DNA of 52,326 nt, taken from positions 1-52,326 of the forward strand of contig CANQKN010000003.1 in the NCBI GenBank assembly GCA_947624515.1, read 5' to 3'. The position numbers and the translations under genes are program-made. Shown here piece after piece: positions 1 to 40,807 of the stretch (position 1 is its first letter; each line of letters begins with the position of its first letter). This DNA is from an uncultured Bacilli bacterium. Lineage in GTDB: Bacteria; Bacillota_I; Bacilli_A; RF39; UBA660. A model generated the notes under the pieces. The model did no database searches and was not told the origin of the DNA. It was given only the letters and a program-made list of their open reading frames with translations.

Positions 1-365
1 TAAGATGGTCCTCCCTTATAAGCATTGCCATCTTTTTCTTGATATTTTGCTCCTAAGTAACTTTCACAGAAAGCATTGATGGAAGTAATGACTCCTACTA
101 CCCAAATCCAAAAAATAGTTCCTGGTCCACCTATATAGATTGCTAAAGCGATTCCTGATAGAGAACCTACACCTACTCTAGCTGCTAATGACATTGTTAG
201 GCTTTTAAAGGGAGATACTTTACTATTTTTGTCTTTCTGAAATCCTTTGAATAAAGATTTTATTTTAAACTGAGGAAATCCTAATTTAATGCTAAAATAA
301 AGTCCTCCTCCTAAAAGAAAAATAATAGCTGTACTCCATAATAGATCTGTTATCACTTTCAGCAT
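1..365 (-). CDS. Alanine/glycine:cation symporter family protein (N-terminal part; runs off window edge)
   Basis: Manual translation from ATG at 365 (RBS AGGTGA): MLKVITDLLWS...SPFKSLTMSLAARVGVGSLSGIALAIYIGGPGTIFWIW...YKGGPSY, typical AGCS motifs. Not in the ORF track because it is truncated. Confidence 0.85.
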   Translation of the reverse strand, partial: MLKVITDLLWSTAIIFLLGGGLYFSIKLGFPQFKIKSLFKGFQKDKNSKVSPFKSLTMSLAARVGVGSLSGIALAIYIGGPGTIFWIWVVGVITSINAFCESYLGAKYQEKDGNAYKGGPS

Positions 366-440
366 ATTATCACCTAGTGAAATTATATAAAATAGAAAAA
401 GAAAAAAATGTCCTTTTCTGACATTTTACCATAATTCTTT

Positions 441-803
441 TTATTTCCAATGATTTCCTATTGCCGCTATAACTCTATCAGGATCTTCTAAAAACTTTTC
501 ATATAATTTGCTATCTTTTTTTAAAGCTTCAATAATTTCAATATCTTTTTCTGATAAACTTACAATTCTATTTTCTGCTTTTGGAAATTCTAATTCCATT
601 CCAATTAACCATAAAAAATCTACTTCTAGGAAATTTGCTATTCGAATTAATACATCAATTGGTGGAGTTCTCTTTCCACTTTCATATAGACATACTTCCT
701 GTTTACTAACATAGATTGCTTTTCCTAAAGATTCTTGTGTTAATGATCTTTGTTTTCTTGCTTCTTTTAGTCGTTTTTGAAATACCACCATACTATCCCT
801 CAT
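441..803 (-). CDS. XRE-family helix-turn-helix transcriptional regulator
   Basis: RLKEARKQRSLTQESLGK...YESGKRTPPIDVLIRIANFLEV HTH_3 pattern. Confidence 0.85.
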   Translation of the reverse strand: MRDSMVVFQKRLKEARKQRSLTQESLGKAIYVSKQEVCLYESGKRTPPIDVLIRIANFLEVDFLWLIGMELEFPKAENRIVSLSEKDIEIIEALKKDSKLYEKFLEDPDRVIAAIGNHWK

Positions 804-2646: not shown

Positions 2647-3798
2647 ATGAATTATAATTGGGATATTGAAAAATTAGAAAAGCAGAAAAAAATCATTCAA
2701 AATTGTATTAGAATAACCAAAGGGTTAACCAAAGAAGAAATTCAATTTTTAAAAAGTAGTATTAAACAAATTAAAGAATTAGAAGATATTTTATTTAATA
2801 GATATCAATTGAACCAACCTCGGAAAATTCATTATATGGACTCCCATAAATTATTACCTATTAAAACTTATCAAGATTTTCAAAGCATTCCCTACTATAT
2901 CAAAGAAACTATTCTAAAAGCAACCAGGTTATTTAAAGATTTAGATGATACTTATGATAATATTCCTTTACCAATATTTAATGTTAGTAATCAAGATTTA
3001 GTAGAGATGTCATATGATTTCTATTCTCTATTACCGGATTCTTCTTTTCTAAAGGACTTTATTAAATATACAGATCCAAAAAAGCATCTGTTACAATTTA
3101 AAAATGCTCAAATGAAAGATATATTTGGAGGACAAACTTATATTTTTTATTATCCAAAGTATATTCCTTATTTTTTAATTTATAGAAGACATGATATTAG
3201 TGATTTTTTATCCTTAAATCATGAAATTAGTCATGCCATTATGTATCAACATGATACTTATACAGTAGATAAAAAAAATCATTATTTTTTAACGGAATTA
3301 GAAGGGTATTTTTTTGATTATCTTTCTATTCAATATCTAAAAAAATTTTATTCGGAAGAGGTAATTAATCAATTAGAGTATGATCGTATTACTGCTGTAT
3401 TAGAAGATTTTGCTACTATTTTTATTGACGATACTGCTATTCAATTATTTGAAAATAATAGAAAGATTACCCTTCATTCTATTAAGAATCGTTTTCAAAA
3501 ATGGAATCTTCCTTTTTCTATAAATTCTGTTCTTTTAAAAGAAACTTTATGGGAAGATGTGAGATATCATAGCTGTTGTATCCTTTCTCTTTTAACCAGT
3601 TTAGATTTAGAAATGATTTATGAAAAAGATCCTGAATATGCTTTCTATTTATTTGAAAAAATTAGAAATAATAAAACTGATCATATATTTCAAAATCTAG
3701 AAAAAAATGGAATCAGTTTTATGGGAGAAAGGGAAAACTATGATCCTTTTCAAAAGAAGATACAGTGGATTAATCAATTAGGAGAAAAAAGAAAATGA
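2647..3798 (+). CDS. Hypothetical protein with HExxH metallopeptidase (gluzincin/M3-like) motif
   Basis: LNHEISHAI followed about 20 aa later by FLTELEG (candidate third ligand); GAGGGGA RBS. Confidence 0.55.
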   Translation: MNYNWDIEKLEKQKKIIQNCIRITKGLTKEEIQFLKSSIKQIKELEDILFNRYQLNQPRKIHYMDSHKLLPIKTYQDFQSIPYYIKETILKATRLFKDLDDTYDNIPLPIFNVSNQDLVEMSYDFYSLLPDSSFLKDFIKYTDPKKHLLQFKNAQMKDIFGGQTYIFYYPKYIPYFLIYRRHDISDFLSLNHEISHAIMYQHDTYTVDKKNHYFLTELEGYFFDYLSIQYLKKFYSEEVINQLEYDRITAVLEDFATIFIDDTAIQLFENNRKITLHSIKNRFQKWNLPFSINSVLLKETLWEDVRYHSCCILSLLTSLDLEMIYEKDPEYAFYLFEKIRNNKTDHIFQNLEKNGISFMGERENYDPFQKKIQWINQLGEKRK

Positions 3799-3892: not shown

Positions 3893-4331
3893 CATTGTTT
3901 AAAATTTTATAACTTCTAAATAACTGTTCTAATAATAAAATTCTAAATAATTGATGAGGAAAAGTCATTTTTGAAAAAGATAATTTAGCATTAGCCCTTT
4001 CTTTTATACTAGGATGAATTCCGTAAGAACCACCTATTATAAAGGTAATATCACTATTTTGAATCAAAGTTTTATCTAACTTATCGGCAAATTCTAGGGA
4101 AGATAATTCTTTTCCTTCAATCTCTAGTGTAATCAAAAACTCTTTTCCTGTAATGTGTTTTAATAGTTCTTTTTTTTCTTTTTCTAAAGCTACTTTTTCA
4201 TGATCAATTTCGGAATCCGGTAACTCTATTATTTCTATATTTGTATACTTTTTTAATCTCTTTACATATTCTTCTTGTGCTTCTTTTAAATAAGTTTCTT
4301 TTAATTTACCAATACAAATAATTTTAATCAT
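3876..4331 (-). CDS. rlmH: 23S rRNA (pseudouridine1915-N3)-methyltransferase RlmH
   Basis: IKIICIGKLKE...FIIGGSYG...LSFSKMTFPHQLFRILLLEQLFR...YHK. Confidence 0.95.
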   Translation of the reverse strand: MIKIICIGKLKETYLKEAQEEYVKRLKKYTNIEIIELPDSEIDHEKVALEKEKKELLKHITGKEFLITLEIEGKELSSLEFADKLDKTLIQNSDITFIIGGSYGIHPSIKERANAKLSFSKMTFPHQLFRILLLEQLFRSYKILNNEKYHK

Positions 4332-4332
4332 A

Positions 4333-5094
4333 TTAAACCTCAATTTCTTCTAAGGATTCATATTGTTTCGCTACGAGAATTTCTTTATGAATATGATTTT
4401 TTTCTAAAAGATTCTTCGTTGTTTCTAAAGCTAATTCTTCCGTATTATTGTTTTCACTAATATGGGCTAAAATAATTTTTTTGGTTTTTTCTCCTACAAT
4501 ATCTAATAAATAGTTTGCAGTTGTTTCATTGGAAAGGTGACCTTTATCACTAATTACCCTTTGCTTTAATAGATAGGGATAAGGTCCTTCCATTAGCATT
4601 TCTTCATCATGATTACTTTCCATAATATAAATTTCTCTATTTTTTAATAAAGGAAAATATTTTTCATTAATGTAACCAGTATCTGTAATATAGACAAGAG
4701 AATGATTATTTGCCTCTAAAACAAAGCCTACTCCTTCAACATCATGAGAGATTCTAATTAAATCGATTTTTAAATCTTCCAAAACGAAAGAGTTATCATA
4801 GATGAAAATATTTTCTTTCGGTATTCTTTTAGATAATTCCTCTATCATTTCTTTTAGTGCATATACTTTTAAATTAGTTTTTTTCACTAAAGATGCCAAC
4901 CCTTTAATATGATCACTATGCGTATGAGTTATAAAAATAGCATCTAATTCTTTCGGAGAAACACCAACTGTTTCTAATTCGGTTACTAGATATTGATAAG
5001 TTATTCCCATATCAATCAAAATTTTTAATTTTTCGGTTTGGATAAAAGTACTATTTCCTTTTGATCCACTTGCTAATACTTTTACTTTCATCAT
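4333..5094 (-). CDS. walJ: MBL-fold metallo-hydrolase, WalJ/YycJ-like
   Basis: LASGSKGN, THTHSDH, ESNHD, GHLSN, LAHISENNN; adjacent to rlmH as in Bacilli. Confidence 0.8.
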   Translation of the reverse strand: MMKVKVLASGSKGNSTFIQTEKLKILIDMGITYQYLVTELETVGVSPKELDAIFITHTHSDHIKGLASLVKKTNLKVYALKEMIEELSKRIPKENIFIYDNSFVLEDLKIDLIRISHDVEGVGFVLEANNHSLVYITDTGYINEKYFPLLKNREIYIMESNHDEEMLMEGPYPYLLKQRVISDKGHLSNETTANYLLDIVGEKTKKIILAHISENNNTEELALETTKNLLEKNHIHKEILVAKQYESLEEIEV

Positions 5095-6653
5095 CTAAAA
5101 ATGGTAGTATATGGATTTAAAGCTACCCCTCCTCTAAATGGATAACCACTATATAAACCAAAATGTAGGTGAACTCCTGATGCAAAACCACTTCTACCTG
5201 CAGTACCAATCTGATCATTTGACATAACAATATCACCATATTTTTTCGTACGAGAAGCCATATGAGCATACATCGTATAGTAACCATTACTGTGTTTGAT
5301 AATAATATAATTTCCGTTGGTACTATTATAAGAAGATTCTACTACAACACCATTATTCACAGCTTTAATTGCACTTCCATAAGTAATACCGGAAATATCA
5401 AGTCCCTCATGAAGTTTACCCCAACGCCATCCATAAGGACTACTGATTGTATATGGAGTCATAGTAGGCCATACCCAACTACCAATACCAACTGGTACAT
5501 CAATATTAGGATTATAAACTTGATACTGTTTCGTTCCTCTAGTTACTATCTTATTAATAGTTGGAACTAATTCTACAGTAGATCCGGGAACGGTAACAAT
5601 TTCTTTAATTTCACCATTTACTAACTGAATTTTTTGAGTAATTAATTCTAGTCCATCTTGACCTTCTTGTTCTACTCTCTCATACCCTACATATTGAGTA
5701 TCATCATTTTTATATATAGTTTCCATTGTTTTTACTTTTTTAGAAACAACATGTTCCACTTCTACTAAATCAAAAACAGGAGATATTAATCCTAATTTTA
5801 CTACTTGTCCAGGATATAATAGGTCTTGGGCTGTTTTAAAATTAGTATTAGCAATTAAAAATTCTTCGGTTGATAATTTATTATTATAGGAAATTTCTTC
5901 TATTGTATCCCCTGCTTTTACAATATAAGATTCCTGTTCTTTGGTAGTTCCAAAAAGTAAATATTTACTTAATTCCTCTTCTGTTTGATAGATCATATCA
6001 CCTACGGGAATACGAGTTTCCTTAATCATAATATTATTAGCAATACTGATATTTTCAATAATAGTTCCCTCTTCATTTTCCTCTAATTTTTTTTGAGTAT
6101 CATTTAAGTAACTATCATATTGATCACTATCAATGAAAGCAGTTATTGTTTTTCTAACAGAGTTAGTAAAAATATCTTTGTCTAATACATATAAGGTAAT
6201 ATCAGGAGTTGTAGTAACTGTCCCATCTTCATTTGATTTTTCAATACCATTAATTTTTATCTCATATCCATCAACAGTAAAAGAAGAAGGACCCATAATA
6301 TCTTCTATTTTTTGGTAAATTTCTTCTACCGAAAGAATGGTTTCATTATAAGTAATTTCTTTGATAATATCTAAATCATTGGGAGCATATACTTTATCAA
6401 CTTGATACTTTTCTTTTAATTGTTGTTGTTTTCCATCAATATAATCTAATAATTCTTTTTCTGACTCAATTACGCCAATTGATTTACCTGATAAATAAAT
6501 ACGATATAACTGGCGTGGAGTATTTGTATTTGTATAGATTCCAACAATTTTTGCATAAATTGTATTGGGATTTGATCCAATAAAGATAATTGCACATGAT
6601 AGTAAAAATGCTATTATGACAATTAAAATTTGTTTTTTACTCATTTTTTTCAC
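5091..6653 (-). CDS. M23 peptidase with LysM and G5 domains (cell-wall endopeptidase)
   Basis: N-terminal TM/signal; LysM YIVKAGDTIEEIS; G5-like segment; M23 HEGLD and HLH motifs. Confidence 0.9.
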   Translation of the reverse strand: MKKMSKKQILIVIIAFLLSCAIIFIGSNPNTIYAKIVGIYTNTNTPRQLYRIYLSGKSIGVIESEKELLDYIDGKQQQLKEKYQVDKVYAPNDLDIIKEITYNETILSVEEIYQKIEDIMGPSSFTVDGYEIKINGIEKSNEDGTVTTTPDITLYVLDKDIFTNSVRKTITAFIDSDQYDSYLNDTQKKLEENEEGTIIENISIANNIMIKETRIPVGDMIYQTEEELSKYLLFGTTKEQESYIVKAGDTIEEISYNNKLSTEEFLIANTNFKTAQDLLYPGQVVKLGLISPVFDLVEVEHVVSKKVKTMETIYKNDDTQYVGYERVEQEGQDGLELITQKIQLVNGEIKEIVTVPGSTVELVPTINKIVTRGTKQYQVYNPNIDVPVGIGSWVWPTMTPYTISSPYGWRWGKLHEGLDISGITYGSAIKAVNNGVVVESSYNSTNGNYIIIKHSNGYYTMYAHMASRTKKYGDIVMSNDQIGTAGRSGFASGVHLHFGLYSGYPFRGGVALNPYTTIFR

Positions 6654-7998
6654 CCTTATTATCCTTAGTCATATTTAGAAATGTACTGGTACTTTTTTTA
6701 AATAATAAATCGATTTTTCCAGTTGGTCCATTACGATGTTTTCCAATAATTAATTCACTTAAACTTGGATCGGCTGCTTCCCCTAACTCTTTTGTATTTT
6801 GATAGTAGTCATCACGATATAATAAAGCAACAATATCGGCATCTTGTTCAATAGAACCTGATTCTCTTAAATCACTCATTTTTGGCCTTTTATCTTCACG
6901 AGATTCTACACCACGAGATAACTGGGCTAACGCAATGACTGGGATTTTTAGTTCCATAGCCATTTTTTTTAGATTTCTAGAAATATCCGTAATTTCTAAT
7001 TGACGATTATTTCCATAGTTACCACCCATTGTTAATAATTGAAGGTGATCGATAATTACTAAATCTAATCCCTCTTCACTAGTTGCTAGACGACGGCATT
7101 TGGATTTGATATCTCCTACTGTTACTCCTGCATCGTCGCAAATGTAAAGTTTAGCTTGTGCTAATTGACTTTTAGCTTCTGTTATTCTTTTCCAATCTTC
7201 ATTTAAAAGATTACCACTTGTTAGTTTGGTACCTTCAATTTGTCCTAAAGAAGAAAGCATACGATTTGCTAACTGTTCAGCACCCATTTCCAAAGAGAAA
7301 ATAGCCACTGTTTTATCAGTATTTATAGCTACACTGGTAGCAAGATTTAAAGCAAAGGCAGTTTTACCCATGGCAGGACGCGCTGCTAAAATCACTAGTT
7401 GATTTTCATGTAATCCTGAAGTTAGACGATCTAATTCATACCAACCTGTAGGAATTCCGGTAATTTCTCCTTTTGAAGATGCTAATTTTTCTAAATTTTG
7501 TTGCACATCATTTAAAATATTTTGAATCGTTCTAAATTCAGAAGAACGACGATTTTTAATAATTCCTACAATTTTACTTTCTACTTGATCTAAAATATCG
7601 GTTACTTCGCCATTATGTTCATAAGCTAATGTTGCAATTTCTGTAGAAGTATCTATTACGCTTCTTAACATATAATTATCTTCTACTATTTTTATGTAAT
7701 ATTCAATATTAGCAGCAGTTGGTACAACATTTATTAATTCTGTTAGATATTCTACACCGCCTACATCATTCAACTTTTTGGTTTGATTTAATTCTGCTGT
7801 AATTGTTGTTAGGTCAATAGGTACCTTTTTATCATGTAAATCAGCAATAGATTGAAAAATAATTTTGTGTTTATCTAAATAAAATGAATCAGCAAACAAT
7901 TTATCTGTTGCTTTTTCTATTGCACTTGGCGATAGAAACATTGCTCCTAATACAGATTGCTCTGCTACAATATCATTAGGAATGGTTTTAATAGCCAT
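6637..7998 (-). CDS. dnaB: Replicative DNA helicase
   Basis: AEQSVLG, ARPAMGKT, IDHLQL, QLSR, DLRESGSIEQDAD, KHRNG. Confidence 0.97.
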   Translation of the reverse strand: MAIKTIPNDIVAEQSVLGAMFLSPSAIEKATDKLFADSFYLDKHKIIFQSIADLHDKKVPIDLTTITAELNQTKKLNDVGGVEYLTELINVVPTAANIEYYIKIVEDNYMLRSVIDTSTEIATLAYEHNGEVTDILDQVESKIVGIIKNRRSSEFRTIQNILNDVQQNLEKLASSKGEITGIPTGWYELDRLTSGLHENQLVILAARPAMGKTAFALNLATSVAINTDKTVAIFSLEMGAEQLANRMLSSLGQIEGTKLTSGNLLNEDWKRITEAKSQLAQAKLYICDDAGVTVGDIKSKCRRLATSEEGLDLVIIDHLQLLTMGGNYGNNRQLEITDISRNLKKMAMELKIPVIALAQLSRGVESREDKRPKMSDLRESGSIEQDADIVALLYRDDYYQNTKELGEAADPSLSELIIGKHRNGPTGKIDLLFKKSTSTFLNMTKDNKGEKNE

Positions 7999-8011
7999 AT
8001 GATCACCTACT

Positions 8012-8452
8012 TTATTTTACTAATTGTATTTTTAATTCTGCTTTTACCTCTTTGTATAGTGTAATTATTACTTTATGGAATCCTAATGATTGTAAAGAGG
8101 TTGTTAATTCAATTTGTTTTTTATCTATTTTATATCCTTTTTTTAATAATTCTTCTTTGATTTGTTTAGGACTAATACTTCCAAATACTTTATCTTGTTC
8201 TCCTGTTTTTACTTTAAAAGTAAGAGTTATGTTCTCTAATTGTTGTTTTAGTTCATTAGCTTGTTTTGTTAAGGCTTCTTCTTCTTTTCTTTTTGTTTCT
8301 TTTTCTGCTTTTACTTTTTCTAGATTTTTTTCTGTTAGAGGAGTTGCATAACCATTTTTAATAAGGAAGTTTTCAGCATATCCATCTTTTACTTCTTTGA
8401 TATCTCCTTTTTTTGCTTGTTTCTTTAAGTCTTTCACAAAGATTACTTTCAT
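8012..8452 (-). CDS. rplI: 50S ribosomal protein L9
   Basis: MKVIF...[13 protein letters not shown]; KVFGSIS. Confidence 0.97.
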
Positions 8453-8462
8453 AGAATCCCTC

Positions 8463-9431
8463 CTATTTTAATAATTTTTTTAATTCTTCAGCTGCTTGAT
8501 GCAAAGTAATATCTTTTATTTGGGCAGCAGCATCGTGATTATCACCACCACCACCAAATGTTTCAGCTATTTTACCAACATTGATGGTTCCTTCGCTCCT
8601 TGCACTTAATCCAACTCCTCCATCAGTTCTATTTCCTAATACAAAGGATGCTTCAATATTATTAAATTGAAGAAGGGTATCCGCAATTTTAGCAAGTTCT
8701 TCTCGTTTGTATGTAATTTTATCAGGAGCAATGGATAATGCATATTTATCATTAATTACTTTTACTTCTGTAATGACTTTTTGTCTTATTATATAATCTT
8801 TAATGTCTTGTTTCAAGAAATATTGAACTTTTCTAGGAATTGCACCTTGTTCAGCCAAATAATAAGCAGCTTGATATGTCTTTGTAGTAGTCTTTACAAT
8901 AAAATTATTAGTATCCAATACAATTCCTGCTAAAATGAAGGTTGCTGGTTTTGGTTCCAGTTTTACATGATAAGCTTCTATTAAATTCGTTACAATTTCG
9001 CAAGTACTAGAAGCTTGTTCTTCAATAATTCGATCAGTATGGGAAATTGTTTGATCTGTTTCTTGATGATGATCTAATATGATAATATTTTTAAAATAGT
9101 GAAGGACTTTATCACTTTGTAGTAATTGAGCTTTATTGGTATCTACAATGATTAAAATACTTCTCTTGGAATAGTAGTTGGGAATATTACTACTTTGGAT
9201 GATATGATAGTTATTTCCTATTTCTTTTAATACCTTTTCTACACCTAGTTCATGTTTTTCATCATCGATAATAATATAATTTTTCTTATGAAAATGATTA
9301 CTAATTGCTGATACACCAATACAAGCTCCTAAAGCATCTAAATCAAGATTTTTATGAGCCATAATAAAAATATTTTTACTAAATTTTATTTTTCTTTTGA
9401 TCTTTGTTTCTATTTTCATCAGATTCACCAT
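8463..9431 (-). CDS. DHH/DHHA1 phosphoesterase, GdpP-like catalytic domain only
   Basis: [30 protein letters not shown]; syntenic with gdpP upstream of rplI-dnaB but lacks TM/PAS/GGDEF. Confidence 0.85.
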
Positions 9432-9516: not shown

Positions 9517-10776
9517 CTATCTTATTTTTCTTGGTTCTTCTATCGTTAAACTTAATTTTTTGATGTCTTCTTCGGAAATATAAATTACTTTACCGCCTGG
9601 TGGATTGATTTTGTTATCACCATAAGCAATCCAAATGGCTTTAACTTCTGTTTTTGGCATAGATGCACAACCATCTGTAAAAATTATTTTATTTTCAGCT
9701 TTTCCTGTAAAAGCATTCACTGCTACCTCAAAGTCAGTTCCACCTCTTCCTATAATAGGAAAATTATCTATATCTTCTTGGGTTTTTATTACTTGAAAGC
9801 CATAGAATTTTGTATCAAAACAACCAACACTAATCTCTGAAGTTTGAAGAATTGTTTTACATTCTCTCAAAGTGCTTCTAACTATGTTATCACTTACTGA
9901 ACTGCTTGTATCGATCACAATCTCTGTTTTTGGTTTCGGCTGTTCTTCTATATGTGGTATTACTACTCCATATTCTATGGTAGCATTTATAAATGACCAG
10001 TCTTCTTCTATTTTAGTAGCATTATAAAGTAATTGTTTCCAATTTAATAAATTACTGGCTTCTCCTATATTATCTAATTTTAGATTTTGTTCATCAGTAT
10101 TATTCCCAGCATTTATCATTTGATTTACCAATTGTTTTCTTAGTTTTTTCAGTTTTTGTTTTAATTCTTGTCTATTTTTTTGGAATATTTCTTTTTCGGA
10201 ACAGTCTTTTCCATTAGGTAGATCTTTTGTTTCTTCTTGATACCAACCACTATGGGTATCATGTCCTACATCATATTGTTTAAAATCTTGAGAGTTTTGG
10301 TATTCAGGAGAATGATTGTTTTTCTCTTTCTGATTATTTTTTGAATTTTTTTGTTTTTGCTTTTGATTCATTAATTTTTGATAATATTGTTCAGCACTAT
10401 AATTAATAGCTTCTGGAATATCAACTAATCCATCTATCAGTTTAAAACCATCTTTTTTTAAGTTTGTATTTATTACAGCATCTGTTGCTATATTCCAAAT
10501 TTTAGGATTTCTATCTTTACTTCTTTCATGATGCTTTAAATGGATATGCATTAGTTCATGAGCAAATAAAAAGGTTCTTTCTTCACGATCTAGGTTAGAA
10601 ACAAAATCAGGGTGATACTTTATTTTTGTTTTACTTGCTGCTGCTGTTGGATTTCCATTAAAATCAAAACAATTATAATCTGGGGCTATTTCTATATTAG
10701 CTAATGTACTTCCAAGAAAACTATATGTGAATAAAACATCTCTTATAATTTCTTCTATATTTATTTCACTCTTCAT
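9517..10776 (-). CDS. Zincin-like metallopeptidase plus vWA domain protein (DUF2201-like)
   Basis: FAHELMH (HExxH), WNIATDAVIN, Q/K/N-rich linker, MIDAS DTSSS...RGGTDF...FTDG. Confidence 0.85.
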   Translation of the reverse strand: MKSEINIEEIIRDVLFTYSFLGSTLANIEIAPDYNCFDFNGNPTAAASKTKIKYHPDFVSNLDREERTFLFAHELMHIHLKHHERSKDRNPKIWNIATDAVINTNLKKDGFKLIDGLVDIPEAINYSAEQYYQKLMNQKQKQKNSKNNQKEKNNHSPEYQNSQDFKQYDVGHDTHSGWYQEETKDLPNGKDCSEKEIFQKNRQELKQKLKKLRKQLVNQMINAGNNTDEQNLKLDNIGEASNLLNWKQLLYNATKIEEDWSFINATIEYGVVIPHIEEQPKPKTEIVIDTSSSVSDNIVRSTLRECKTILQTSEISVGCFDTKFYGFQVIKTQEDIDNFPIIGRGGTDFEVAVNAFTGKAENKIIFTDGCASMPKTEVKAIWIAYGDNKINPPGGKVIYISEEDIKKLSLTIEEPRKIR

Positions 10777-10784
10777 AACATCAC

Positions 10785-11189
10785 CTACATTACAGCAACT
10801 AAGGAAGAAATCGTATCATTCATTGTTTCCTGATTAGATTTTCCAGCAATGATTATCACACAGTTTTTTGGTAGATTAAATACATTGACTTTTCTATATT
10901 TTAATAATTCCCCAAATTTTAGTTGTTCTTCTTTTGAAATACTAGATAGATCCTTAATTACTAAGAAGCAATAATTCTCATTCTCATATTGGTTTAATTC
11001 TTGATACCATGATGGTGGTAAAAATTCTTTTTCTTCATAATGCCCTGTTAATTCATTGATGTTGATATCTGCTGGTAAAATGACACTATTTTTATCAAAT
11101 ATATCTGATTGAATATTTTCAAGCAGAATAGGTACATAATGAGTCTTAATATAAGCTTCTATCATTTCTAATCTATCTTGATTTTTCAT
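10785..11189 (-). CDS. Small degenerate (inactive) MoxR-like AAA+ domain protein
   Basis: PPSWYQEL, FLVIKDL and LPKNCVIIIAG align by eye with PTWLKRL, ILFLDEI and LPENARIVVAG of the upstream ATPases; no Walker A. Confidence 0.6.
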   Translation of the reverse strand: MKNQDRLEMIEAYIKTHYVPILLENIQSDIFDKNSVILPADININELTGHYEEKEFLPPSWYQELNQYENENYCFLVIKDLSSISKEEQLKFGELLKYRKVNVFNLPKNCVIIIAGKSNQETMNDTISSLVAVM

Positions 11190-13047
11190 TTTTCGTCTCT
11201 CTTTCTAATTTTTCTAAGCGATGATTATCTCCTTGGGTCCATAAGTTATCAAATAAAGATAAGGTTTCTTCTCCTAATTTTTCTACAAATTCTCTTACAG
11301 TTTCTATGTGCTCTTCATCTACTTGTGATAGGGCTACTGCTGTTACTGCTTTTTCACTAAGATTCATATTTAAATCTTCTTCTGTATAATTTCCATTTAA
11401 AACGTCTTCTAATGTAATTACTCTTTGATTACAGAAGGCTATAAACTCTCTTGTTAGTGCTTCTCCTATTAAAGCTCTTAACATTTCTGGTTTTCCTGTT
11501 GTATATAACATCTTAGATGCCATCTCCCATTTCCTTGGATCGGCATTTGGCTTCTTTCCTGTATATGTCGTTCTTAATGCAGCTTCTCTTCTATAATTGA
11601 TAAAAGCATAAATCGCTGGATGGATCTTCTTTTCGACTTTTCCTTCTTCATAGTCTATCTTTCCATATTCTTCTATTGGTGTTGATGCCCAATTTAACCA
11701 ATCTTCTACTGTTGTATGAATATAAATATGAGCTAGTCTATTATATAATGGCTGTGGTATTTCTATTGCTGATATCGAATCTTCTACTTCATTTCCTGCT
11801 ACTACGATTCTAGCATTTTCTGGTAGTTTCCACTTTCCATCTAATTCTCGATCTAAGATTAAATTATAGGCTAGATTTAGGATATAATTTGATTTTACAT
11901 TCGTGATTTCATCTAAGAATAAAATATGAATTTTATCTTTTTCTTTTTGACATTTTTCTTCTAAACGCTTTAACCAGGTTGGTTTTACATCTATCATTTC
12001 TCCTGTTTCCTGATTATAGACACTTTTTCCTGCAAAGGAATCGGGATTTTGCGTGATCATATAGATGATTTCACAGTCTGGATCAAGTTCTTTTATACGA
12101 GCACTTTTTCCATCACTTGGTAAACCATGTAGAAAGGGGGCAATTCCACTTTTAATAGCTCCTATTATTATTTCTTCTTCGGTTACTTGATCAAAATTCA
12201 AGTTATATAGATTTTTCTTATTGAGTTCTTCTTTTTGTTTTAACATAGCTGTTCTTATATTTTCATTTTGGATATCTCTAATAAAATGAGTATTTAAAAA
12301 CCAGTACAAATTTGTTTGGGTAAAATCTCCTTTATAATTTTCTTCTAAATTAAATTGTACACCTGCAAATAAAATATCTTCTGATATAATTCTATCTTTT
12401 TTCAAATCTCCTAACCATTTAATAGGTTCTACTTCTACCCATACATAATCACCATTTTGATATTTTTTTTTATTAGATAAAGTAAATTCTATTTCATCAT
12501 AAAAATTTGCTTTTACTCTTACATATTTTTTCCCTTGATATTCATATTCAATATGTAATTGAGGTTCAAAATCTCCTTTGTCATCTTTTCTAGAATCTGT
12601 TGTATAGGTTTTTCCCGTCTTTTTTAGAGTTCCTTGATAATATTTTCTTTCTAATACTCTTTGCATATTTTTACCTACTACTGTTTGAGGATATTCTCCA
12701 TACTCTACTTCTAGAATGTTATCATGTGCCAACATTTGATTTGAACAGATGGAAGCGATGGAAGAGTACAGTAAAACTGGACGGCAACCAATATCACGTA
12801 GGCTAGCATTGTAGTTATAACTATTACCAGCACAATTAACAACACGCGCATTATTACCTTCATCGTCTGTTTTGGTCCAATACTGTCCTGTTCTATCTTT
12901 TAAAGCTTTAGATGCATTTCCTCCTAATAATATCGCAAAACCGGTTATTCTAGCACTAGCTCCTCTTTGTTTAAAAATATCTAATCGATTAGTATCATTG
13001 CCATAGATTTGATCTCTTGTTAATATATCAACAATTATATTATTCAT
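11173..13047 (-). CDS. DUF6273/CLec-like N-terminal domain fused to MoxR-type AAA+ ATPase (paralog B)
   Basis: YWTK...GCRPVL, YGEYPQ, EPIKW; Walker A GLPSDGKS, Walker B LFLDE, sensor VVAGN, LYNRL, PRKWE. ATG 13047 follows AGGTGA and overlaps the paralog A stop. Confidence 0.8.
   Translation of the reverse strand: MNNIIVDILTRDQIYGNDTNRLDIFKQRGASARITGFAILLGGNASKALKDRTGQYWTKTDDEGNNARVVNCAGNSYNYNASLRDIGCRPVLLYSSIASICSNQMLAHDNILEVEYGEYPQTVVGKNMQRVLERKYYQGTLKKTGKTYTTDSRKDDKGDFEPQLHIEYEYQGKKYVRVKANFYDEIEFTLSNKKKYQNGDYVWVEVEPIKWLGDLKKDRIISEDILFAGVQFNLEENYKGDFTQTNLYWFLNTHFIRDIQNENIRTAMLKQKEELNKKNLYNLNFDQVTEEEIIIGAIKSGIAPFLHGLPSDGKSARIKELDPDCEIIYMITQNPDSFAGKSVYNQETGEMIDVKPTWLKRLEEKCQKEKDKIHILFLDEITNVKSNYILNLAYNLILDRELDGKWKLPENARIVVAGNEVEDSISAIEIPQPLYNRLAHIYIHTTVEDWLNWASTPIEEYGKIDYEEGKVEKKIHPAIYAFINYRREAALRTTYTGKKPNADPRKWEMASKMLYTTGKPEMLRALIGEALTREFIAFCNQRVITLEDVLNGNYTEEDLNMNLSEKAVTAVALSQVDEEHIETVREFVEKLGEETLSLFDNLWTQGDNHRLEKLERETKNEKSR
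11224..12152. repeat. Direct repeat copy 1 (about 929 bp, ATPase coding region)
   Basis: Matches 13115-14043 at offset 1891; no mismatch seen in spot checks; translations identical. Confidence 0.9.
12778..12870 (-). other. Hypervariable segment, DGR variable-region-like (paralog B)
   Basis: 93 nt between YWTK and CRP; dense first/second-position codon differences versus paralog A; most codons end in C/T. Confidence 0.5.
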
Positions 13048-14971
13048 CTTGTTTATCACCTAGCTTTTTTTCTTTAGCTTTGACATGATTCTTTATTAAT
13101 CTTTCTAAGCGATAATTATCTCCTTGGGTCCATAAGTTATCAAATAAAGATAAGGTTTCTTCTCCTAATTTTTCTACAAATTCTCTTACAGTTTCTATGT
13201 GCTCTTCATCTACTTGTGATAGGGCTACTGCTGTTACTGCTTTTTCACTAAGATTCATATTTAAATCTTCTTCTGTATAATTTCCATTTAAAACGTCTTC
13301 TAATGTAATTACTCTTTGATTACAGAAGGCTATAAACTCTCTTGTTAGTGCTTCTCCTATTAAAGCTCTTAACATTTCTGGTTTTCCTGTTGTATATAAC
13401 ATCTTAGATGCCATCTCCCATTTCCTTGGATCGGCATTTGGCTTCTTTCCTGTATATGTCGTTCTTAATGCAGCTTCTCTTCTATAATTGATAAAAGCAT
13501 AAATCGCTGGATGGATCTTCTTTTCGACTTTTCCTTCTTCATAGTCTATCTTTCCATATTCTTCTATTGGTGTTGATGCCCAATTTAACCAATCTTCTAC
13601 TGTTGTATGAATATAAATATGAGCTAGTCTATTATATAATGGCTGTGGTATTTCTATTGCTGATATCGAATCTTCTACTTCATTTCCTGCTACTACGATT
13701 CTAGCATTTTCTGGTAGTTTCCACTTTCCATCTAATTCTCGATCTAAGATTAAATTATAGGCTAGATTTAGGATATAATTTGATTTTACATTCGTGATTT
13801 CATCTAAGAATAAAATATGAATTTTATCTTTTTCTTTTTGACATTTTTCTTCTAAACGCTTTAACCAGGTTGGTTTTACATCTATCATTTCTCCTGTTTC
13901 CTGATTATAGACACTTTTTCCTGCAAAGGAATCGGGATTTTGCGTGATCATATAGATGATTTCACAGTCTGGATCAAGTTCTTTTATACGAGCACTTTTT
14001 CCATCACTTGGTAAACCATGTAGAAAGGGGGCAATTCCACTTTGGATAGCTCCTATTATTATTTCTTCTTCGGTTACTTCATCAAAATTCAAGTTATATA
14101 AATTTTTCTTATTGAGTTCTTCTTTTTGTTTTAACATAGCTGTTCTTATATTTTCATTTTGAATATCTTTAATAAAATAAGTATTTAAAAACCAGTACAG
14201 ATTTGTTTGAGAAAAATTCCCTATATAATTAATTTCCTGATTAAATTGTACACCTGCAAATAGAATATTTTCGGCTATCGCGATATTATTTTTACTATCT
14301 ACTAACCATTTAATAGGTTCTACTTCTACCCAAATATAATCACCATTTTGATATCTTACACCATTAGATAGAATAAAGTTTTTTTCATCATAACTAGCAT
14401 TTGCTTTTACTCTTACATATTTTTTTCCTTGATATTCATATTCAATATGAGATTGAGGTTCAAAATCTGCTCCTTCTTCCTCATAGTTTCTAGAATCCGT
14501 TGTATAGGTTTTTCCCGTCTTTTTTAAGGTTTCTTTACAAAGTTCCATTTCTAATACTTCTTGCATATTTTTATCTACTGGTTGTTGAGGATATTCCCCA
14601 TACTCTACTTCTAGAATGTTATCGTGTGCTATCACTTGATTTGAAGAGATGGAAGAGATGGCAGAGTATGATAAAACGGGACGACAGCCAATATGACGTC
14701 TGTTAATATTAGTGCTGTTAAAATAACCAGAATAGTTAACAACTTTCACGCAAATACTTCCATCAGCTTTTTTGGTCCAATACTGTCCTGCTCTATCTTT
14801 TAAAGCTTTCGAATTATTTACATGGTCAATTTCAGATGCAACTCCTCCTAATAATATCGCAAAACCAGTTATTCTGGCTCTAGCTCCTCTTTGTTTAAAA
14901 ATATCTAATCGATTAGTATCATCACCAAATATTTGGTCTTCTGTTAGTATATCAACAATTATATTATTCAT
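13040..14971 (-). CDS. DUF6273/CLec-like N-terminal domain fused to MoxR-type AAA+ ATPase (paralog A)
   Basis: Same motifs as paralog B; GGGGAG RBS; C-terminal ATPase translation identical to paralog B. Confidence 0.8.
   Translation of the reverse strand: MNNIIVDILTEDQIFGDDTNRLDIFKQRGARARITGFAILLGGVASEIDHVNNSKALKDRAGQYWTKKADGSICVKVVNYSGYFNSTNINRRHIGCRPVLSYSAISSISSNQVIAHDNILEVEYGEYPQQPVDKNMQEVLEMELCKETLKKTGKTYTTDSRNYEEEGADFEPQSHIEYEYQGKKYVRVKANASYDEKNFILSNGVRYQNGDYIWVEVEPIKWLVDSKNNIAIAENILFAGVQFNQEINYIGNFSQTNLYWFLNTYFIKDIQNENIRTAMLKQKEELNKKNLYNLNFDEVTEEEIIIGAIQSGIAPFLHGLPSDGKSARIKELDPDCEIIYMITQNPDSFAGKSVYNQETGEMIDVKPTWLKRLEEKCQKEKDKIHILFLDEITNVKSNYILNLAYNLILDRELDGKWKLPENARIVVAGNEVEDSISAIEIPQPLYNRLAHIYIHTTVEDWLNWASTPIEEYGKIDYEEGKVEKKIHPAIYAFINYRREAALRTTYTGKKPNADPRKWEMASKMLYTTGKPEMLRALIGEALTREFIAFCNQRVITLEDVLNGNYTEEDLNMNLSEKAVTAVALSQVDEEHIETVREFVEKLGEETLSLFDNLWTQGDNYRLERLIKNHVKAKEKKLGDKQDE
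13115..14043. repeat. Direct repeat copy 2 (about 929 bp, ATPase coding region)
   Basis: Matches 11224-12152. Confidence 0.9.
14678..14770 (-). other. Hypervariable segment, DGR variable-region-like (paralog A)
   Basis: Counterpart of 12778-12870; same length, no indels. Confidence 0.5.
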
Positions 14972-15101
14972 ACTGCTATCTCCCCAGTTTTTTGATTCCT
15001 ATGATATCACTTTTTCTATATTTTTACCAGTATTTTTGAATAAAATTAAGTTTTTAAGATTTTTATTTCTATTCCAATCTTTTTTATTCAATTTTTTTCA
15101 T

Positions 15102-15135
15102 AAAAAATAAAAGATGAACTTTTTTGGTTCATCTT
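15102..15135 (-). terminator. Intrinsic terminator after rpsR
   Basis: AAGATGAAC/GTTCATCTT stem followed by a T-rich tract on the minus strand. Confidence 0.7.
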
Positions 15136-18785: not shown

Positions 18786-19886
18786 TTATACATTAAATCT
18801 AAAATGACAGATGTCGCCATCTTGCATTAGATAATCCTTTCCTTCTAATCGAGCTTTTCCTGCTTCTTTTACTTTTAGTTCACTTCCACAAGATATTAAA
18901 TCTTCGTAAGACATTACTTCTGCTCGAATAAATCCTTTTTCAAAATCAGTATGAATAATTCCTGCACATTCCTTAGCATTCATTCCTTTTTTGAAAGTCC
19001 ATGCTCTTACCTCATCTGTTCCTACTGTAAAGTAGGTTGCTAGTCCTAATAAATCGTAAGTAGCTTTTATTAATTGATCTAATCCACTCATTTCAATTCC
19101 TAGAGCTTCTAACATTTCTTTATGATCTTTATCATCTAATTGACTTAGTTCTTCTTCTATTTTAGCACAAACCTTAATTACTTTAGCATTTTCTTTGTTG
19201 GCATATTCTTTTACTATTTTTACATAATCGTTATCTGCTTCTGCTACCTCTTCTTCATTAATATTAGCCATATAAATAATTGGTTTTAGTGTTAAGAAAT
19301 TATAAGATTTGATAGCCTGCTTTTCTTCTTTCGTAAAATCAACTGTTCTTAATGGTTGATTTTTTTCTAGGGCTTCTTTTGCTTTGATCAGAGCATCTAA
19401 TTCTACTAATTCATCTTTATCTTTCGTAGTTCTTACTTTTTTTTCTATTTTTTCGATTCGATTACCAATACTCTCTAAATCAGCTAGTACTAATTCTAAA
19501 TTGATAATTTCAATGTCGCGAAGTGGATCAACTTTTCCTTCTACATGAATGATATCACTATTTTCAAAACATCTTACTACTTCAACAATGGCATCTGTTT
19601 CCCTAATATGAGATAAGAATTTATTTCCTAATCCTTCGCCTTGACTAGCACCTTTTACTAATCCTGCAATATCAGTAAACTCAAAAGCAGTTGGTATCAG
19701 TCTTTCTGGATGATACATTTCATTTAAAGTATCTAATCTTTCATCCGGAACAGTTACAACTCCTACATTTGGTTCAATGGTAGCAAATGGATAATTTGCT
19801 GCGAGAATACTTTTCTTGGTAATGGCATTAAATAAAGTAGATTTTCCTACATTGGGTAAGCCTACAATTCCTGCTGTTAATCCCAT
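18786..19886 (-). CDS. ychF: Redox-regulated ATPase YchF
   Basis: GIVGLPNVGKSTLFN, ANYPFATIEPN, DIAGLVKGAS, TGS domain ending FRFNV. Confidence 0.97.
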   Translation of the reverse strand: MGLTAGIVGLPNVGKSTLFNAITKKSILAANYPFATIEPNVGVVTVPDERLDTLNEMYHPERLIPTAFEFTDIAGLVKGASQGEGLGNKFLSHIRETDAIVEVVRCFENSDIIHVEGKVDPLRDIEIINLELVLADLESIGNRIEKIEKKVRTTKDKDELVELDALIKAKEALEKNQPLRTVDFTKEEKQAIKSYNFLTLKPIIYMANINEEEVAEADNDYVKIVKEYANKENAKVIKVCAKIEEELSQLDDKDHKEMLEALGIEMSGLDQLIKATYDLLGLATYFTVGTDEVRAWTFKKGMNAKECAGIIHTDFEKGFIRAEVMSYEDLISCGSELKVKEAGKARLEGKDYLMQDGDICHFRFNV

Positions 19887-40580: not shown

Positions 40581-40594
40581 TTACACTCTTTTTA

Positions 40595-40610
40595 TGTTTC
40601 ACGTGAAACA
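40595..40610. promoter_or_regulatory. parS site 1
   Basis: TGTTTCACGTGAAACA perfect consensus. Confidence 0.93.
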
Positions 40611-40617
40611 TAAAATT

Positions 40618-40631
40618 ATTTCCCGGGAAAT
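40618..40631. promoter_or_regulatory. Noc-binding site (NBS)
   Basis: ATTTCCCGGGAAAT, 7 bp from parS1. Confidence 0.85.
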
Positions 40632-40661
40632 AATTGTTTGAATTTTTTATTATTAAATTAA

Positions 40662-40677
40662 TGTTTCACGTGAAACA
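40662..40677. promoter_or_regulatory. parS site 2
   Basis: TGTTTCACGTGAAACA within a 38-bp perfect palindrome (40651-40688). Confidence 0.93.
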
Positions 40678-40744
40678 TTAATTTAATATTTAACTATTTC
40701 TAAAATATTTATGAATATTGATTTGATAAATATATAATTGACAA

Positions 40745-40760
40745 TGTTTCACGTGAAACA
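40745..40760. promoter_or_regulatory. parS site 3
   Basis: TGTTTCACGTGAAACA. Confidence 0.93.
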
Positions 40761-40807
40761 TTGAAAAAAAGTTGTTTTTTTTAAATTTTTATATTAGTAT
40801 ATTATAC

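Follow-up and report, generated by a model that had tools for sequence, protein, structure and literature searches.

Two tandem paralogous genes, termed gene A and gene B, in the genome of an uncultured Bacilli bacterium (assembly GCA_947624515.1) each contain a 93-nt segment that is probably an orphan (fossil) variable region (VR) of a diversity-generating retroelement (DGR), whose cassette was deleted while its target was kept as a tandem pair. The segments are positionally homologous to verified VRs in other gut Bacilli, the assembly lacks a reverse transcriptase (RT), a template repeat (TR) and an Avd-like gene, the syntenic slot of the cassette is empty, and genes A and B are nested among DGR-bearing and decaying lineages. 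Part of the present difference between the two segments would then date from DGR activity. The features of the locus are listed in Table 1; the window is the whole stretch of DNA analysed (52,326 nt).

Table 1. Features of the locus and their positions in the window.
Feature	Position	Strand	Basis or remark
Gene A, 643 aa	13040..14971	-	ORF
Gene A domains	residues ~1-104; ~105-300; ~311-620		predicted DUF6273-like (C-lectin-like); middle; predicted AAA+ ATPase
Gene B, tandem paralog of A, 624 aa	11173..13047	-	start taken as ATG 13047; GTG 13059 in the ORF list
VR-equivalent of gene A, codons 68-98 (K68..P98)	14678..14770	-	codon alignment
VR-equivalent of gene B, codons 60-90	12778..12870	-	codon alignment
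929-nt tract of gene A, ATPase part	13115..14043	-	exact match to gene B 11224-12152
Partner of the 929-nt tract, in gene B	11224..12152	-	
SYSAISSISSN-coding stretch, directly after GCRPVL	14639..14671	-	family consensus PYSSIxSISSN
Small conserved ORF, 134 aa, module gene 2	10785..11189	-	ORF
DUF2201_N (putative metallopeptidase) + DUF2201 VWA-like protein, module gene 3	9517..10776	-	Pfam
Spacer between rpsR and gene A, 162 nt	14972..15133	-	slot of Avd-like gene, TR and RT in DGR-positive homologs

When aligned by codon, the two segments differ at 34 of 93 nucleotides with no indels, and the differences fall 11/14/9 over the three codon positions. Adenine is present in one copy at 19 of the 25 differences at positions 1 and 2. 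YWTK, VV(N), G82, R92 and GCRPVL are unchanged, and 26 of the 31 codons in each segment end in C or T, compared with 254/612 and 236/593 in the rest of genes A and B (Fisher 3e-6 and 2e-6). At least 26 such codons occur in 41 of 12,997 31-codon stretches from the long ORFs of the window. These counts and fixed motifs bear out an earlier note on this DNA exactly where it had given approximate figures. However, the C-rich CCATCTCTT tandem that it had set apart as an atypical element proved to be family-conserved coding sequence (S-Y-S-A-I-S-S-I-S-S-N).

Genes A and B share 8 nt where the first runs into the second, and the two proteins are 86-87% identical overall. The segment has the lowest identity along the pair (63%), whereas the remaining N-terminal 300 codons are 86-91% identical and the ATPase part differs at 1 of 310 codons. 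The exact identity over 929 nt indicates gene conversion or a very recent duplication, as judged from sequence. Fast evolution extends over all of the N-terminal 300 codons (dN 0.12-0.18, dN/dS ~0.5-0.65). In the segment dN/dS is below 1 (0.46/0.69), and dS is raised too (0.69 vs. 0.23), with third-position differences at 9/31 codons vs. 34/268 (p 0.026). The same segment is the least conserved region in 14 of 18 other within-locus paralog pairs, counting only pairs that show any difference.

At least 2779 homologs make up the family of gene A. The gene A protein has no match in Pfam, NCBIfam or PADLOC, and neither the A nor the B protein matches Pfam DUF6273 (PF19789), even at E ≤ 10 with the isolated domain. 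Among 40 sampled homologs, DUF6273 matches 4 (E ≤ 0.01), AAA_5 matches 7 and Sigma54_activat matches 8; homolog P0066 scores 25.4 bits against DUF6273 over profile positions 103-169. Comparison of the N-terminal domain family (91 sequences) with five DUF6273 DGR targets of relatives by hhalign gave E 4e-6 over 87 columns, with YWTK placed on WWLR and GCRPVL on GVAPAF, at a probability of 86.9%, which lies below the usual 95%. This supports a predicted N-terminal domain related to DUF6273 and C-type-lectin-like, since DUF6273 is known as a DGR target of C-type-lectin-like character (PMC10743442). Nothing relevant was returned by a profile search of PDB sequences. Walker A (GLPSDGKS) and Walker B (ILFLDE) motifs can be read in gene A, as can a HELMH motif in the DUF2201_N protein. 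Against the AAA profile the gene A protein reaches only E 0.17; the DUF2201 VWA partner is clear (94.5 and 46.3 bits for DUF2201_N and the VWA-like DUF2201), and its gene is conserved downstream in related loci. A homolog of the small ORF, whose protein has no match in Pfam, NCBIfam or PADLOC, follows the gene A homolog in most of 68 related loci. Inspection by eye reveals neither a signal peptide nor a membrane segment in the module, which may be a cytoplasmic sensor or conflict system.

Of 73 homologous loci from other gut Bacilli, 11 carry a true DGR VR at the same codons. TR/VR pairs were sought by self-BLAST, with at least 70% of mismatches at A or T of one copy, and clean pairs were found in 9 of 68 loci and then in 2 of 5 further loci. 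Mismatches at A number 12/12 (L008), 10/10 (L009), 9/11 (L010), 12/12 (L012), 13/14 (L013), 11/12 (L021), 7/9 (L042), 11/11 plus one gap (L049) and 10/10 (L052) in the former, and 9/10 (L115) and 11/12 (L117) in the latter. Each TR lies ~1.6 kb upstream of its VR, and the order in DGR-positive loci is Avd-like gene, TR, RT, target, small ORF and VWA gene; the RT scores 61 bits against RVT_1 and the Avd-like protein 22 bits against bAvd, which is under the cut-off. The VR covers codons aligning to codons 75-100 of gene A, and seven TRs with their VRs align there in the same frame without indels (from ~codon 68 for L008 and L042). The present segments thus align in frame and free of indels to VRs verified by TR/VR pairs, and the analogy with DGR-diversified lectin folds drawn in the earlier note holds codon for codon. 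The fixed codons G82, R92 and G95..P98 correspond to non-A codons of the TRs.

A further 11 loci have a decaying cassette immediately upstream of the homolog, which is direct evidence that loss is the common direction. RT fragments are found in L011, L023, L051, L054, L056, L111 and L118, an RT without TR in L015 and L053, an Avd-like gene alone in L114 and a drifted VR in L047. L051 and L056 have rpsF-ssb-rpsR upstream, the same as here. Some cassettes in this series of loci write stop codons into their own target. RT identity between clades is 57-73% and correlates with ATPase identity (Mantel rho 0.69, a value reached by 7 of 2000 permutations). Of 28 genomes from the same genus, 16 contain RVT_1, and 8 of the 14 RT neighbourhoods examined in the genus hold A-only TR/VR pairs, several of them on DUF6273 targets.

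In the genome studied here, the search covered a 1.02-Mb assembly that is 89% complete, which leaves absence unproven for the remainder. RVT_1 has no match over the cut-off in this assembly; the best weak match (E 0.03) is a GT2 glycosyltransferase. Searches of the genome by tblastn with two RTs and two Avd-like proteins (from L013 and L009) gave nothing at E ≤ 1e-3. The template that the earlier note had proposed to seek by BLASTN did not appear, blastn-short finding no third copy of either segment in the assembly. For the repeat scan, 8 DGRs detected in relatives and a further 11 at homologous loci act as positive controls; it found no VR-related A-biased pair, either among 671 repeat pairs genome-wide or in the window. 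The spacer between rpsR and gene A is empty of a DGR cassette and holds the rpsR terminator (15111-15135). Furthermore, the IMH-like 3' motif, CGCCCAGCTTTR in all DGR-positive homologs, is altered in both copies, to CGTCCCGTTTTA and CGTCCAGTTTTA. The marks of an active DGR target (cognate TR, DGR-type RT and conserved GC-rich IMH) are thus lacking in the assembly, and the segment is best read as a target left behind rather than one still in use.

The adenine involvement that the earlier note had taken as a DGR signal does not exceed that of the flanking N-terminal codons (19/25 vs. 42/70; Fisher p 0.22), A making up ~40% of codon positions 1 and 2 here. The ratio of transitions to transversions is likewise no different (17:17 in the segment vs. 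61:43 in the flanks; p 0.43). The A and B VRs mismatch seven foreign TRs equally at A and non-A sites, as with gene B (WIN_B) against the L115 TR (9/23 at A, 14/49 at non-A; p 0.42), whereas in the own VRs of six of the seven TRs the mismatches number 5-12 at A sites, compared with 0-1 at the others; the L115 VR has 5/23 and 3/49 (p 0.1). The DGR mutational signature is not recoverable in the segments of this genome. The variable sites are enriched at TR adenines. Over codons 77-98, A and B vary at 17 of 37 sites where any of the seven foreign TRs has adenine and at 4 of 29 elsewhere (p 0.0075); for the four VRs of this genome and the sister genome (G019) the figures are 29/37 and 9/29 (p 1.5e-4). 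Shared structural tolerance alone could produce this coincidence. Codons 68-76 also vary between A and B (8 of 9, D70 being constant), though the TRs that cover them (L008 and L042) hold few adenines there.

The phylogeny comprised 76 proteins (quick LG+G4) and has long branches, the tree tool warning that L117 and the clade of genes A and B meet as long branches. In this tree, A and B (WIN_A and WIN_B) group with L002, and the successive sisters are L117 (DGR, SH-aLRT 95), L115 (DGR, 94) and L118 (decay, 93); at the next, unresolved fork L013 (DGR) and L036/L111 (decay) join. Because A and B are nested among DGR-bearing lineages, we infer that the cassette was lost in this lineage rather than never present. 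The sister genome, 87% complete, has a homologous rpsR-gene A junction (139/162 identical) and yielded no RT homolog. The VRs of the two genomes differ at 37/93 and 33/93 nt, compared with 33/310 ATPase third positions (p 1e-9 and 1e-7), and the four VRs are star-like (dN 0.44-0.62 in all six pairs) with no orthology signal. A simple picture of segments frozen since the loss does not explain this faster-than-neutral divergence despite a cassette-less junction common to both genomes.

It is unlikely that the lineage never had a DGR, with diversifying selection or relaxed constraint acting on a ligand-binding loop and DGRs recruited repeatedly in its sisters. Such a history would account for the missing adenine signature and for the fast evolution of all N-terminal 300 codons, not the segment alone; the segment is least conserved also in paralog pairs of DGR-free loci (L029, L038, L019 and L037 among them), and the same-genus genomes G023/L033 and G015 have single copies that lack a cassette, within a nine-row clade where no DGR occurs. 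It would, however, need many independent gains of homologous cassettes in the same position and orientation, when the 11 decaying loci are direct evidence of loss and the three nearest sister lineages carry the cassette, two intact and one decaying. The excess of NNY codons and the exact frame common with non-A codons of the TRs also fit a template-derived origin.

Ongoing diversification in trans, by a DGR on the missing part of the genome, a prophage or a plasmid, is highly improbable. Remote targets are known, with a TR "elsewhere in the genome" (as described in PMC7159879), a single TR serves two paralogs in L115, DGRs are common in the genus, and the four VRs lie at equal distances from one another and, from the origin of the shared cassette-less junction onward, have outpaced near-neutral sites in divergence. 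Against this stand the lack of RT, Avd-like gene and TR-like copy in 1.02 Mb and of an RT homolog in the sister genome, the altered IMH-like motif, and the 4/29 differences at sites without TR adenine, which include third positions of G95, C96 and P98 (IMH-equivalent); one current template therefore cannot give both copies, as the earlier note had noticed. Its option of an ancient DGR origin is thus favoured, and that of an active remote DGR is not supported. A mosaic origin, in which the VR alleles are old paralogs or imports, conversion has homogenised all but the most divergent stretch, and hypervariability is an artefact of non-orthologous comparison, is improbable as the full account. The raised dS and third-position differences in the segment, the active conversion seen in the 929-nt tract, arrays of 4-5 copies in L037 and L047, and the four VRs without orthology signal all speak for it, but it accounts for the age of the alleles and not for the same stretch, in exact frame, being variable family-wide. 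It is compatible with orphan VRs and may be part of their history.

Under the favoured reading of orphan VRs, the segments would code for the variable surface stretch that YWTK and GCRPVL frame in a DUF6273-like, C-type-lectin-like domain at the N-terminus. In the wider family, the upstream cassette of Avd-like gene, TR and RT would rewrite these codons by adenine-directed mutagenic retrohoming, and in an ancestor of this genome the cassette would have been deleted between rpsR and the target gene. The predicted AAA+ ATPase with its variable domain would work with the small protein and the DUF2201 VWA/metallopeptidase. Gene conversion would hold the two ATPase halves to one sequence, and the N-terminal parts that bind the ligand, the former VR most of all, would stay well apart, which would leave two hard-wired specificities.

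Canonical DGR VRs lie in C-type-lectin folds, as in Mtd of Bordetella phage BPP-1 and TvpA of Treponema (both cited in PMC7159879). The segments resemble these in their NNY-rich stretch between fixed frame residues with a G-x-R-P-type end, and homologs of gene A are likewise rewritten from a TR with adenine-specific changes. In contrast, TR and RT are lacking here, the VR is near the N-terminus of a 643-aa protein instead of the C-terminus, and the host protein is an ATPase without evident export signal, not a phage fibre or surface lipoprotein. Homogenisation of tandem paralogs by gene conversion outside their specificity-determining regions is a general pattern. The present pair fits it, the 929-nt identical tract adjoining a 63%-identical predicted binding segment, but in relatives the spared segment is the target of a retroelement.

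Tentaclins and other DUF6273 DGR targets have been described in gut phages (PMC10743442; bioRxiv 10.1101/2024.10.15.618418), some of which are reported to keep targets though the DGR is absent (bioRxiv 10.1101/2024.10.15.618418). In those descriptions, Ig-like domains follow and the proteins are presumed virion-surface binders, whereas the present domain is joined to an AAA+ ATPase, encoded by a three-gene module on the chromosome with ribosomal-protein genes next to it, and A and B fall under the Pfam DUF6273 threshold that 4 of 40 homologs reach. A further close parallel is found in the MoxR-vWA "ternary" conflict systems associated with DGRs (Kaur et al., 2020, PMC7159879; Dore et al., 2024, PMC10907252), which are described as combining an AAA+ (MoxR/AAA_5-like) ATPase with a VWA protein and, as third member, a small or adaptor component, with a DGR-diversified lectin-like domain proposed as sensor. 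The variable CLec/FGS domain described there is at the C-terminus of the vWA protein or in a separate target, not N-terminal on the ATPase, and the hosts described are multicellular cyanobacteria, actinobacteria and purple sulfur bacteria rather than gut Bacilli of ~1 Mb. Here, moreover, the VWA partner belongs to the DUF2201 metallopeptidase type and no VMAP was identified. A full-text literature search found no paper combining "diversity-generating retroelement" with "DUF2201". We consider it possible rather than probable that the module is an undescribed DGR-programmed cytoplasmic sensor system of small-genome gut Bacilli with its VR at the ATPase N-terminus, in which repeated retroelement loss is followed by tandem paralog arrays that preserve diversity. 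The orphan VRs of this genome and its sister would then have kept diverging after the loss, at more than the neutral rate, by recombinational allele import or an RT-independent route.

For genome scanning, NNY-rich hyperdivergent stretches framed by W-T-K and G-x-R-P can be DGR footprints without an RT nearby. The target class, an ATPase with a predicted N-terminal variable lectin-like domain and a VWA metallopeptidase partner, is unlike the targets most prominent in DGR surveys, which are surface and phage-tail proteins. A DGR-like signature without a retroelement is here placed in a documented evolutionary series at one locus, from intact cassettes through stop-writing cassettes, drifted targets, RT fragments and RT without TR to loci where the cassette is cleanly deleted and the target kept and duplicated, which allows asking whether a hypervariable receptor freezes, duplicates or decays after the loss of its mutator. 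Should the module prove to be a sensor or conflict system, the theme of DGR plus MoxR/vWA would extend from multicellular bacteria to reduced host-associated genomes.

The earlier note had called two 93-nt segments, which lie in the tandem paralogs gene A and gene B, hypervariable, with a signature like that of the variable region (VR) of a diversity-generating retroelement (DGR). Its counts were reproduced on recount: there are 34 differences between the segments and no indels, distributed 11/14/9 over the three codon positions, and one or other copy carries A at 19 of the 25 differences at positions 1 and 2. Identity within the gene pair is lowest in this segment (63%; first 67 codons, 91%; codons 99-310, 86%), and the ATPase halves show one difference in 310 codons, with a 929-nt exact tract included. 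Codons end in C or T in 26/31 cases in each segment, versus approximately 41% elsewhere in the two genes (p 2-3e-6). Nei-Gojobori estimates were dS 0.69 and dN 0.46 for the segment and dS 0.23 and dN 0.12 for the other N-terminal codons, so that both synonymous and nonsynonymous change are raised in the segment, with dN/dS below 1. Two supposed signals did not hold up: adenine is involved no more often than in the flanks (19/25 vs 42/70; p 0.22), and the C-rich tandem codes for a family-conserved SYSxISSISSN motif.

Features of the window, with genes A and B, their neighbours and two repeats
Feature	Coordinates	Strand	Remarks
Gene A	13040-14971	minus	643 aa; tandem with gene B
Segment in gene A	14678-14770	minus	codons 68-98
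Gene B	11173-13047	minus	624 aa, counted from the ATG matching the start of gene A
Segment in gene B	12778-12870	minus	codons 60-90
Small ORF	10785-11189		134 aa; after gene B, third in the row behind genes A and B
DUF2201_N/DUF2201 protein	9517-10776		putative metallopeptidase with VWA-like domain; Pfam 94.5 and 46.3 bits
Imperfect palindrome/inverted repeat	40591-40762		roughly 60-100 nt; 86% complementarity over 58 nt, centre near 40670 (self-BLAST scan)
Direct repeat	4232-4323 and 19190-19281		92 nt, 68% identity; may be chance or a common protein motif

The family of genes A and B comprises at least 2779 matches among 7999 candidates scored. Neither protein matched Pfam, NCBIfam or PADLOC, the latter two being blank for all four genes, and domain matches among 40 aligned homologs were to AAA_5 (7), Sigma54_activat (8), DUF6273 (4) and Fib_succ_major (1); in homolog P0066, residues 23-97 match the C-terminal part of the DUF6273 model (25.4 bits). 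Searched alone, the N-terminal 124 residues matched 412 representatives with a wide range of architectures (E<=1e-3). A PDB sequence-profile search gave only a chance-level hemopexin match with the N-terminal domain alignment (E 0.079) and no match with the whole-protein alignment; a C-lectin fold is predicted for this domain from profile homology and the literature. Homologs of about 900 aa (P0005, P0007, P0008 and others) have two successive N-terminal modules, lectin-like and middle domain, before the ATPase, and P0009 has two ATPase modules instead of the doubled N-terminal module. Most of 68 related loci (gut Bacilli/'Tenericutes' MAGs) have the ATPase, the small ORF and the VWA protein in this order, and tandem or multiple ATPase copies are common (e.g., L005, L019, L029, L037, L038, L043, L047, L064). 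A literature search on DGRs with RF39, Tenericutes or DUF2201 found nothing relevant; the family may be among the targets tabulated in the supplement of Roux et al. (10.1101/2020.04.01.020958).

DGRs were found at homologous loci with a self-BLAST scan for template repeat (TR)/VR pairs 50-400 nt long that carry five or more mismatches, at least 70% of them at A (or T) of one copy. Validated on the reverse transcriptase (RT) neighbourhoods of relatives, the scan returned clean pairs in 8/14 stretches (e.g., 16/16, 12/12 and 22/23 mismatches at A), several on DUF6273-type targets, with the VR between a YW(T/L)xS motif and GVRP/GVAP. In 9 of the 68 homologous loci a TR lies approximately 1.6 kb upstream of the ATPase gene and matches its codons ~72-105, with mismatches at A of 12/12 (L008, L012), 10/10 (L009, L052), 9/11 (L010), 13/14 (L013), 11/12 (L021), 7/9 (L042) and 11/11 plus one gap (L049); five further loci yielded two more (L115, L117). 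The cassette is ordered as an Avd-like gene (bAvd 22 bits, below cut-off), the TR and an RT of 338-372 aa (RVT_1 61 bits), followed by the target. By alignment, the 93-nt segment is homologous in position to the variable region of a true DGR, because seven TRs align to codons 75-100 of gene A codon for codon without indels, and the non-adenine codons of these TRs coincide with G82, R92 and G95 to P98, the residues fixed between A and B.

Several DGR-positive loci have further peculiarities. In L115, the TR (2929-3008) matches the VRs (4515-4594, 8397-8473) of two paralogous ATPase genes separated by 3.9 kb, which flank the small ORF and VWA gene, one on each side. L117, the closest DGR-positive homolog, has an A-specific pair (11/12; VR 6204-6283, TR 4613-4692) with in-frame TAA codons in the TR and in-frame TGA and TAG in the VR; the DGR has therefore written stop codons into its own target. 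The target ORF is also split inside the VR in L021 (9974-11908; ORFs of 90 and 529 aa) and in L049 (9694-11632), where TR and VR differ in length by one base. In L093, from a genome of the same genus (G009), the TR (2178-2285) serves two identical copies of a protein (154-1488, 5779-7113) that combines a prepilin-type methylation motif at its N-terminus (N_methyl 36.5 bits) with a DUF6273 domain at its C-terminus (62.9 bits), hence a DGR-variable pilin-like protein.

The assembly in which the window is contig C3 (1.02 Mb in 72 contigs, 27.6% GC, rated 89% complete) yielded no such element. An RVT_1 search gave one sub-threshold match, a GT2 glycosyltransferase; tblastn queries from L013 and L009 (RT and Avd-like proteins) had no match in the assembly; and a whole-genome scan of 671 repeat pairs contained no VR-related A-biased pair. 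The earlier note had proposed comparing both segments with the whole genome, and this revealed no third copy in the assembly. Upstream of gene A lie rpsR, ssb and rpsF, with a spacer of only 162 nt between rpsR and gene A that includes the rpsR terminator, the only element recovered in a promoter/terminator scan (promoter-like sites were at chance level). The closest relative, the sister genome G019 (83% identity), shares the tandem pair and the synteny; its rpsR-gene A junction is homologous (139/162 identical), and it has no RT homolog. Both window copies depart from CGCCCAGCTTTR, the 3' motif of DGR-positive VRs. With L047 and six high-GC genomes left out, GC of the codons equivalent to the conserved 3' VR end (IMH) is higher in DGR-positive than in DGR-less loci (MWU p 8e-4, 8 vs 46 rows), but the ranges overlap, so the comparison turns on the 3' motif alone.

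The window VRs mismatch all seven foreign TRs equally at A and non-A sites, giving no adenine-specific footprint, while six of the seven TRs differ from their own VRs nearly exclusively at A (the L115 pair is weaker, 5/23 vs 3/49). Differences between A and B are enriched at TR-adenine sites (17/37 vs 4/29, p 0.0075; 29/37 vs 9/29 with four sequences), which fits a template-derived layout and could also reflect shared structural tolerance; eight of the nine codons 68-76 also differ between A and B, though the TRs covering them are adenine-poor there. The four VRs of the window genome and G019 are equidistant (dN 0.44-0.62), and between the two genomes 33-37 of 93 nt differ, versus 33 of 310 ATPase third positions, with the cassette-less junction common to both. 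This fast divergence may stem from copies retained differentially out of a larger array, from alleles imported via recombination, from strong diversifying selection or from an element acting in trans. Of twelve public runs, all in the form of assembled contigs, four contain at least half of the sampled words; in the four runs compared with the window (X1, X5, X6, X7), 14675-14761 and 12848-12934 are uncovered, a contig gap that has no bearing on population variation. Even in the best-matching run, contigs break off close to both segments.

Decaying cassettes at 11 other loci bear on whether the window lineage ever had one. RT fragments immediately precede the target in L011, L023, L051, L054, L056, L111 and L118 (with rpsF-ssb-rpsR also upstream in L051 and L056); L015 and L053 have an RT without TR and L114 only an Avd-like gene, and in L047 the VR has drifted, its 3' motif is altered and the gene is present in four identical copies. 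In a 76-protein tree (a quick LG+G4 tree with long branches, drawn with midpoint rooting), the successive sisters of the window clade (A, B and L002) are L117 (DGR, 95), L115 (DGR, 94) and L118 (decay, 93); the fork after these, which brings in L013 (DGR) and L036/L111 (decay), is unresolved. RT identity follows ATPase identity (Mantel rho 0.69; 7/2000 permutations as high). We infer that the cassette was lost in the window lineage rather than absent from the start. L047 itself retains RT, Avd-like gene and TR (1025-1102), its VR has 18 mismatches in 78 nt, at non-adenine sites too, and its tandem copies (at 2404, 6043, 8010 and 9977) are identical through the N-terminal 310 codons, which suggests a DGR that has only begun to decay. 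Elsewhere, L119 (G023:C2:328-1143) is a frame resembling an RT (36% identity to that of L013), with six in-frame TAG and no other stops, either a pseudogene or part of an element reading TAG as sense.

The original observation is thus confirmed and its interpretation partly supported: the segments are positional homologs of true VRs, with no adenine-specific footprint and no RT or TR found in the assembly. They are best read, on balance and with moderate confidence, as orphan DGR variable regions that have outlived their mutator. The family would pair a diversifiable binding module, the N-terminal lectin-like domain, with an AAA+ ATPase acting together with a VWA/metallopeptidase partner. This ATPase and VWA scheme is similar to that of the DGR-associated MoxR-vWA conflict systems described by Kaur et al. 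(PMC7159879) and by Dore et al. (PMC10907252), the difference being that the variable domain here is on the ATPase. With the mutator gone from this genome, the two paralogs with their different former VRs would represent two fixed specificities, and their ATPase halves may be kept identical by gene conversion.
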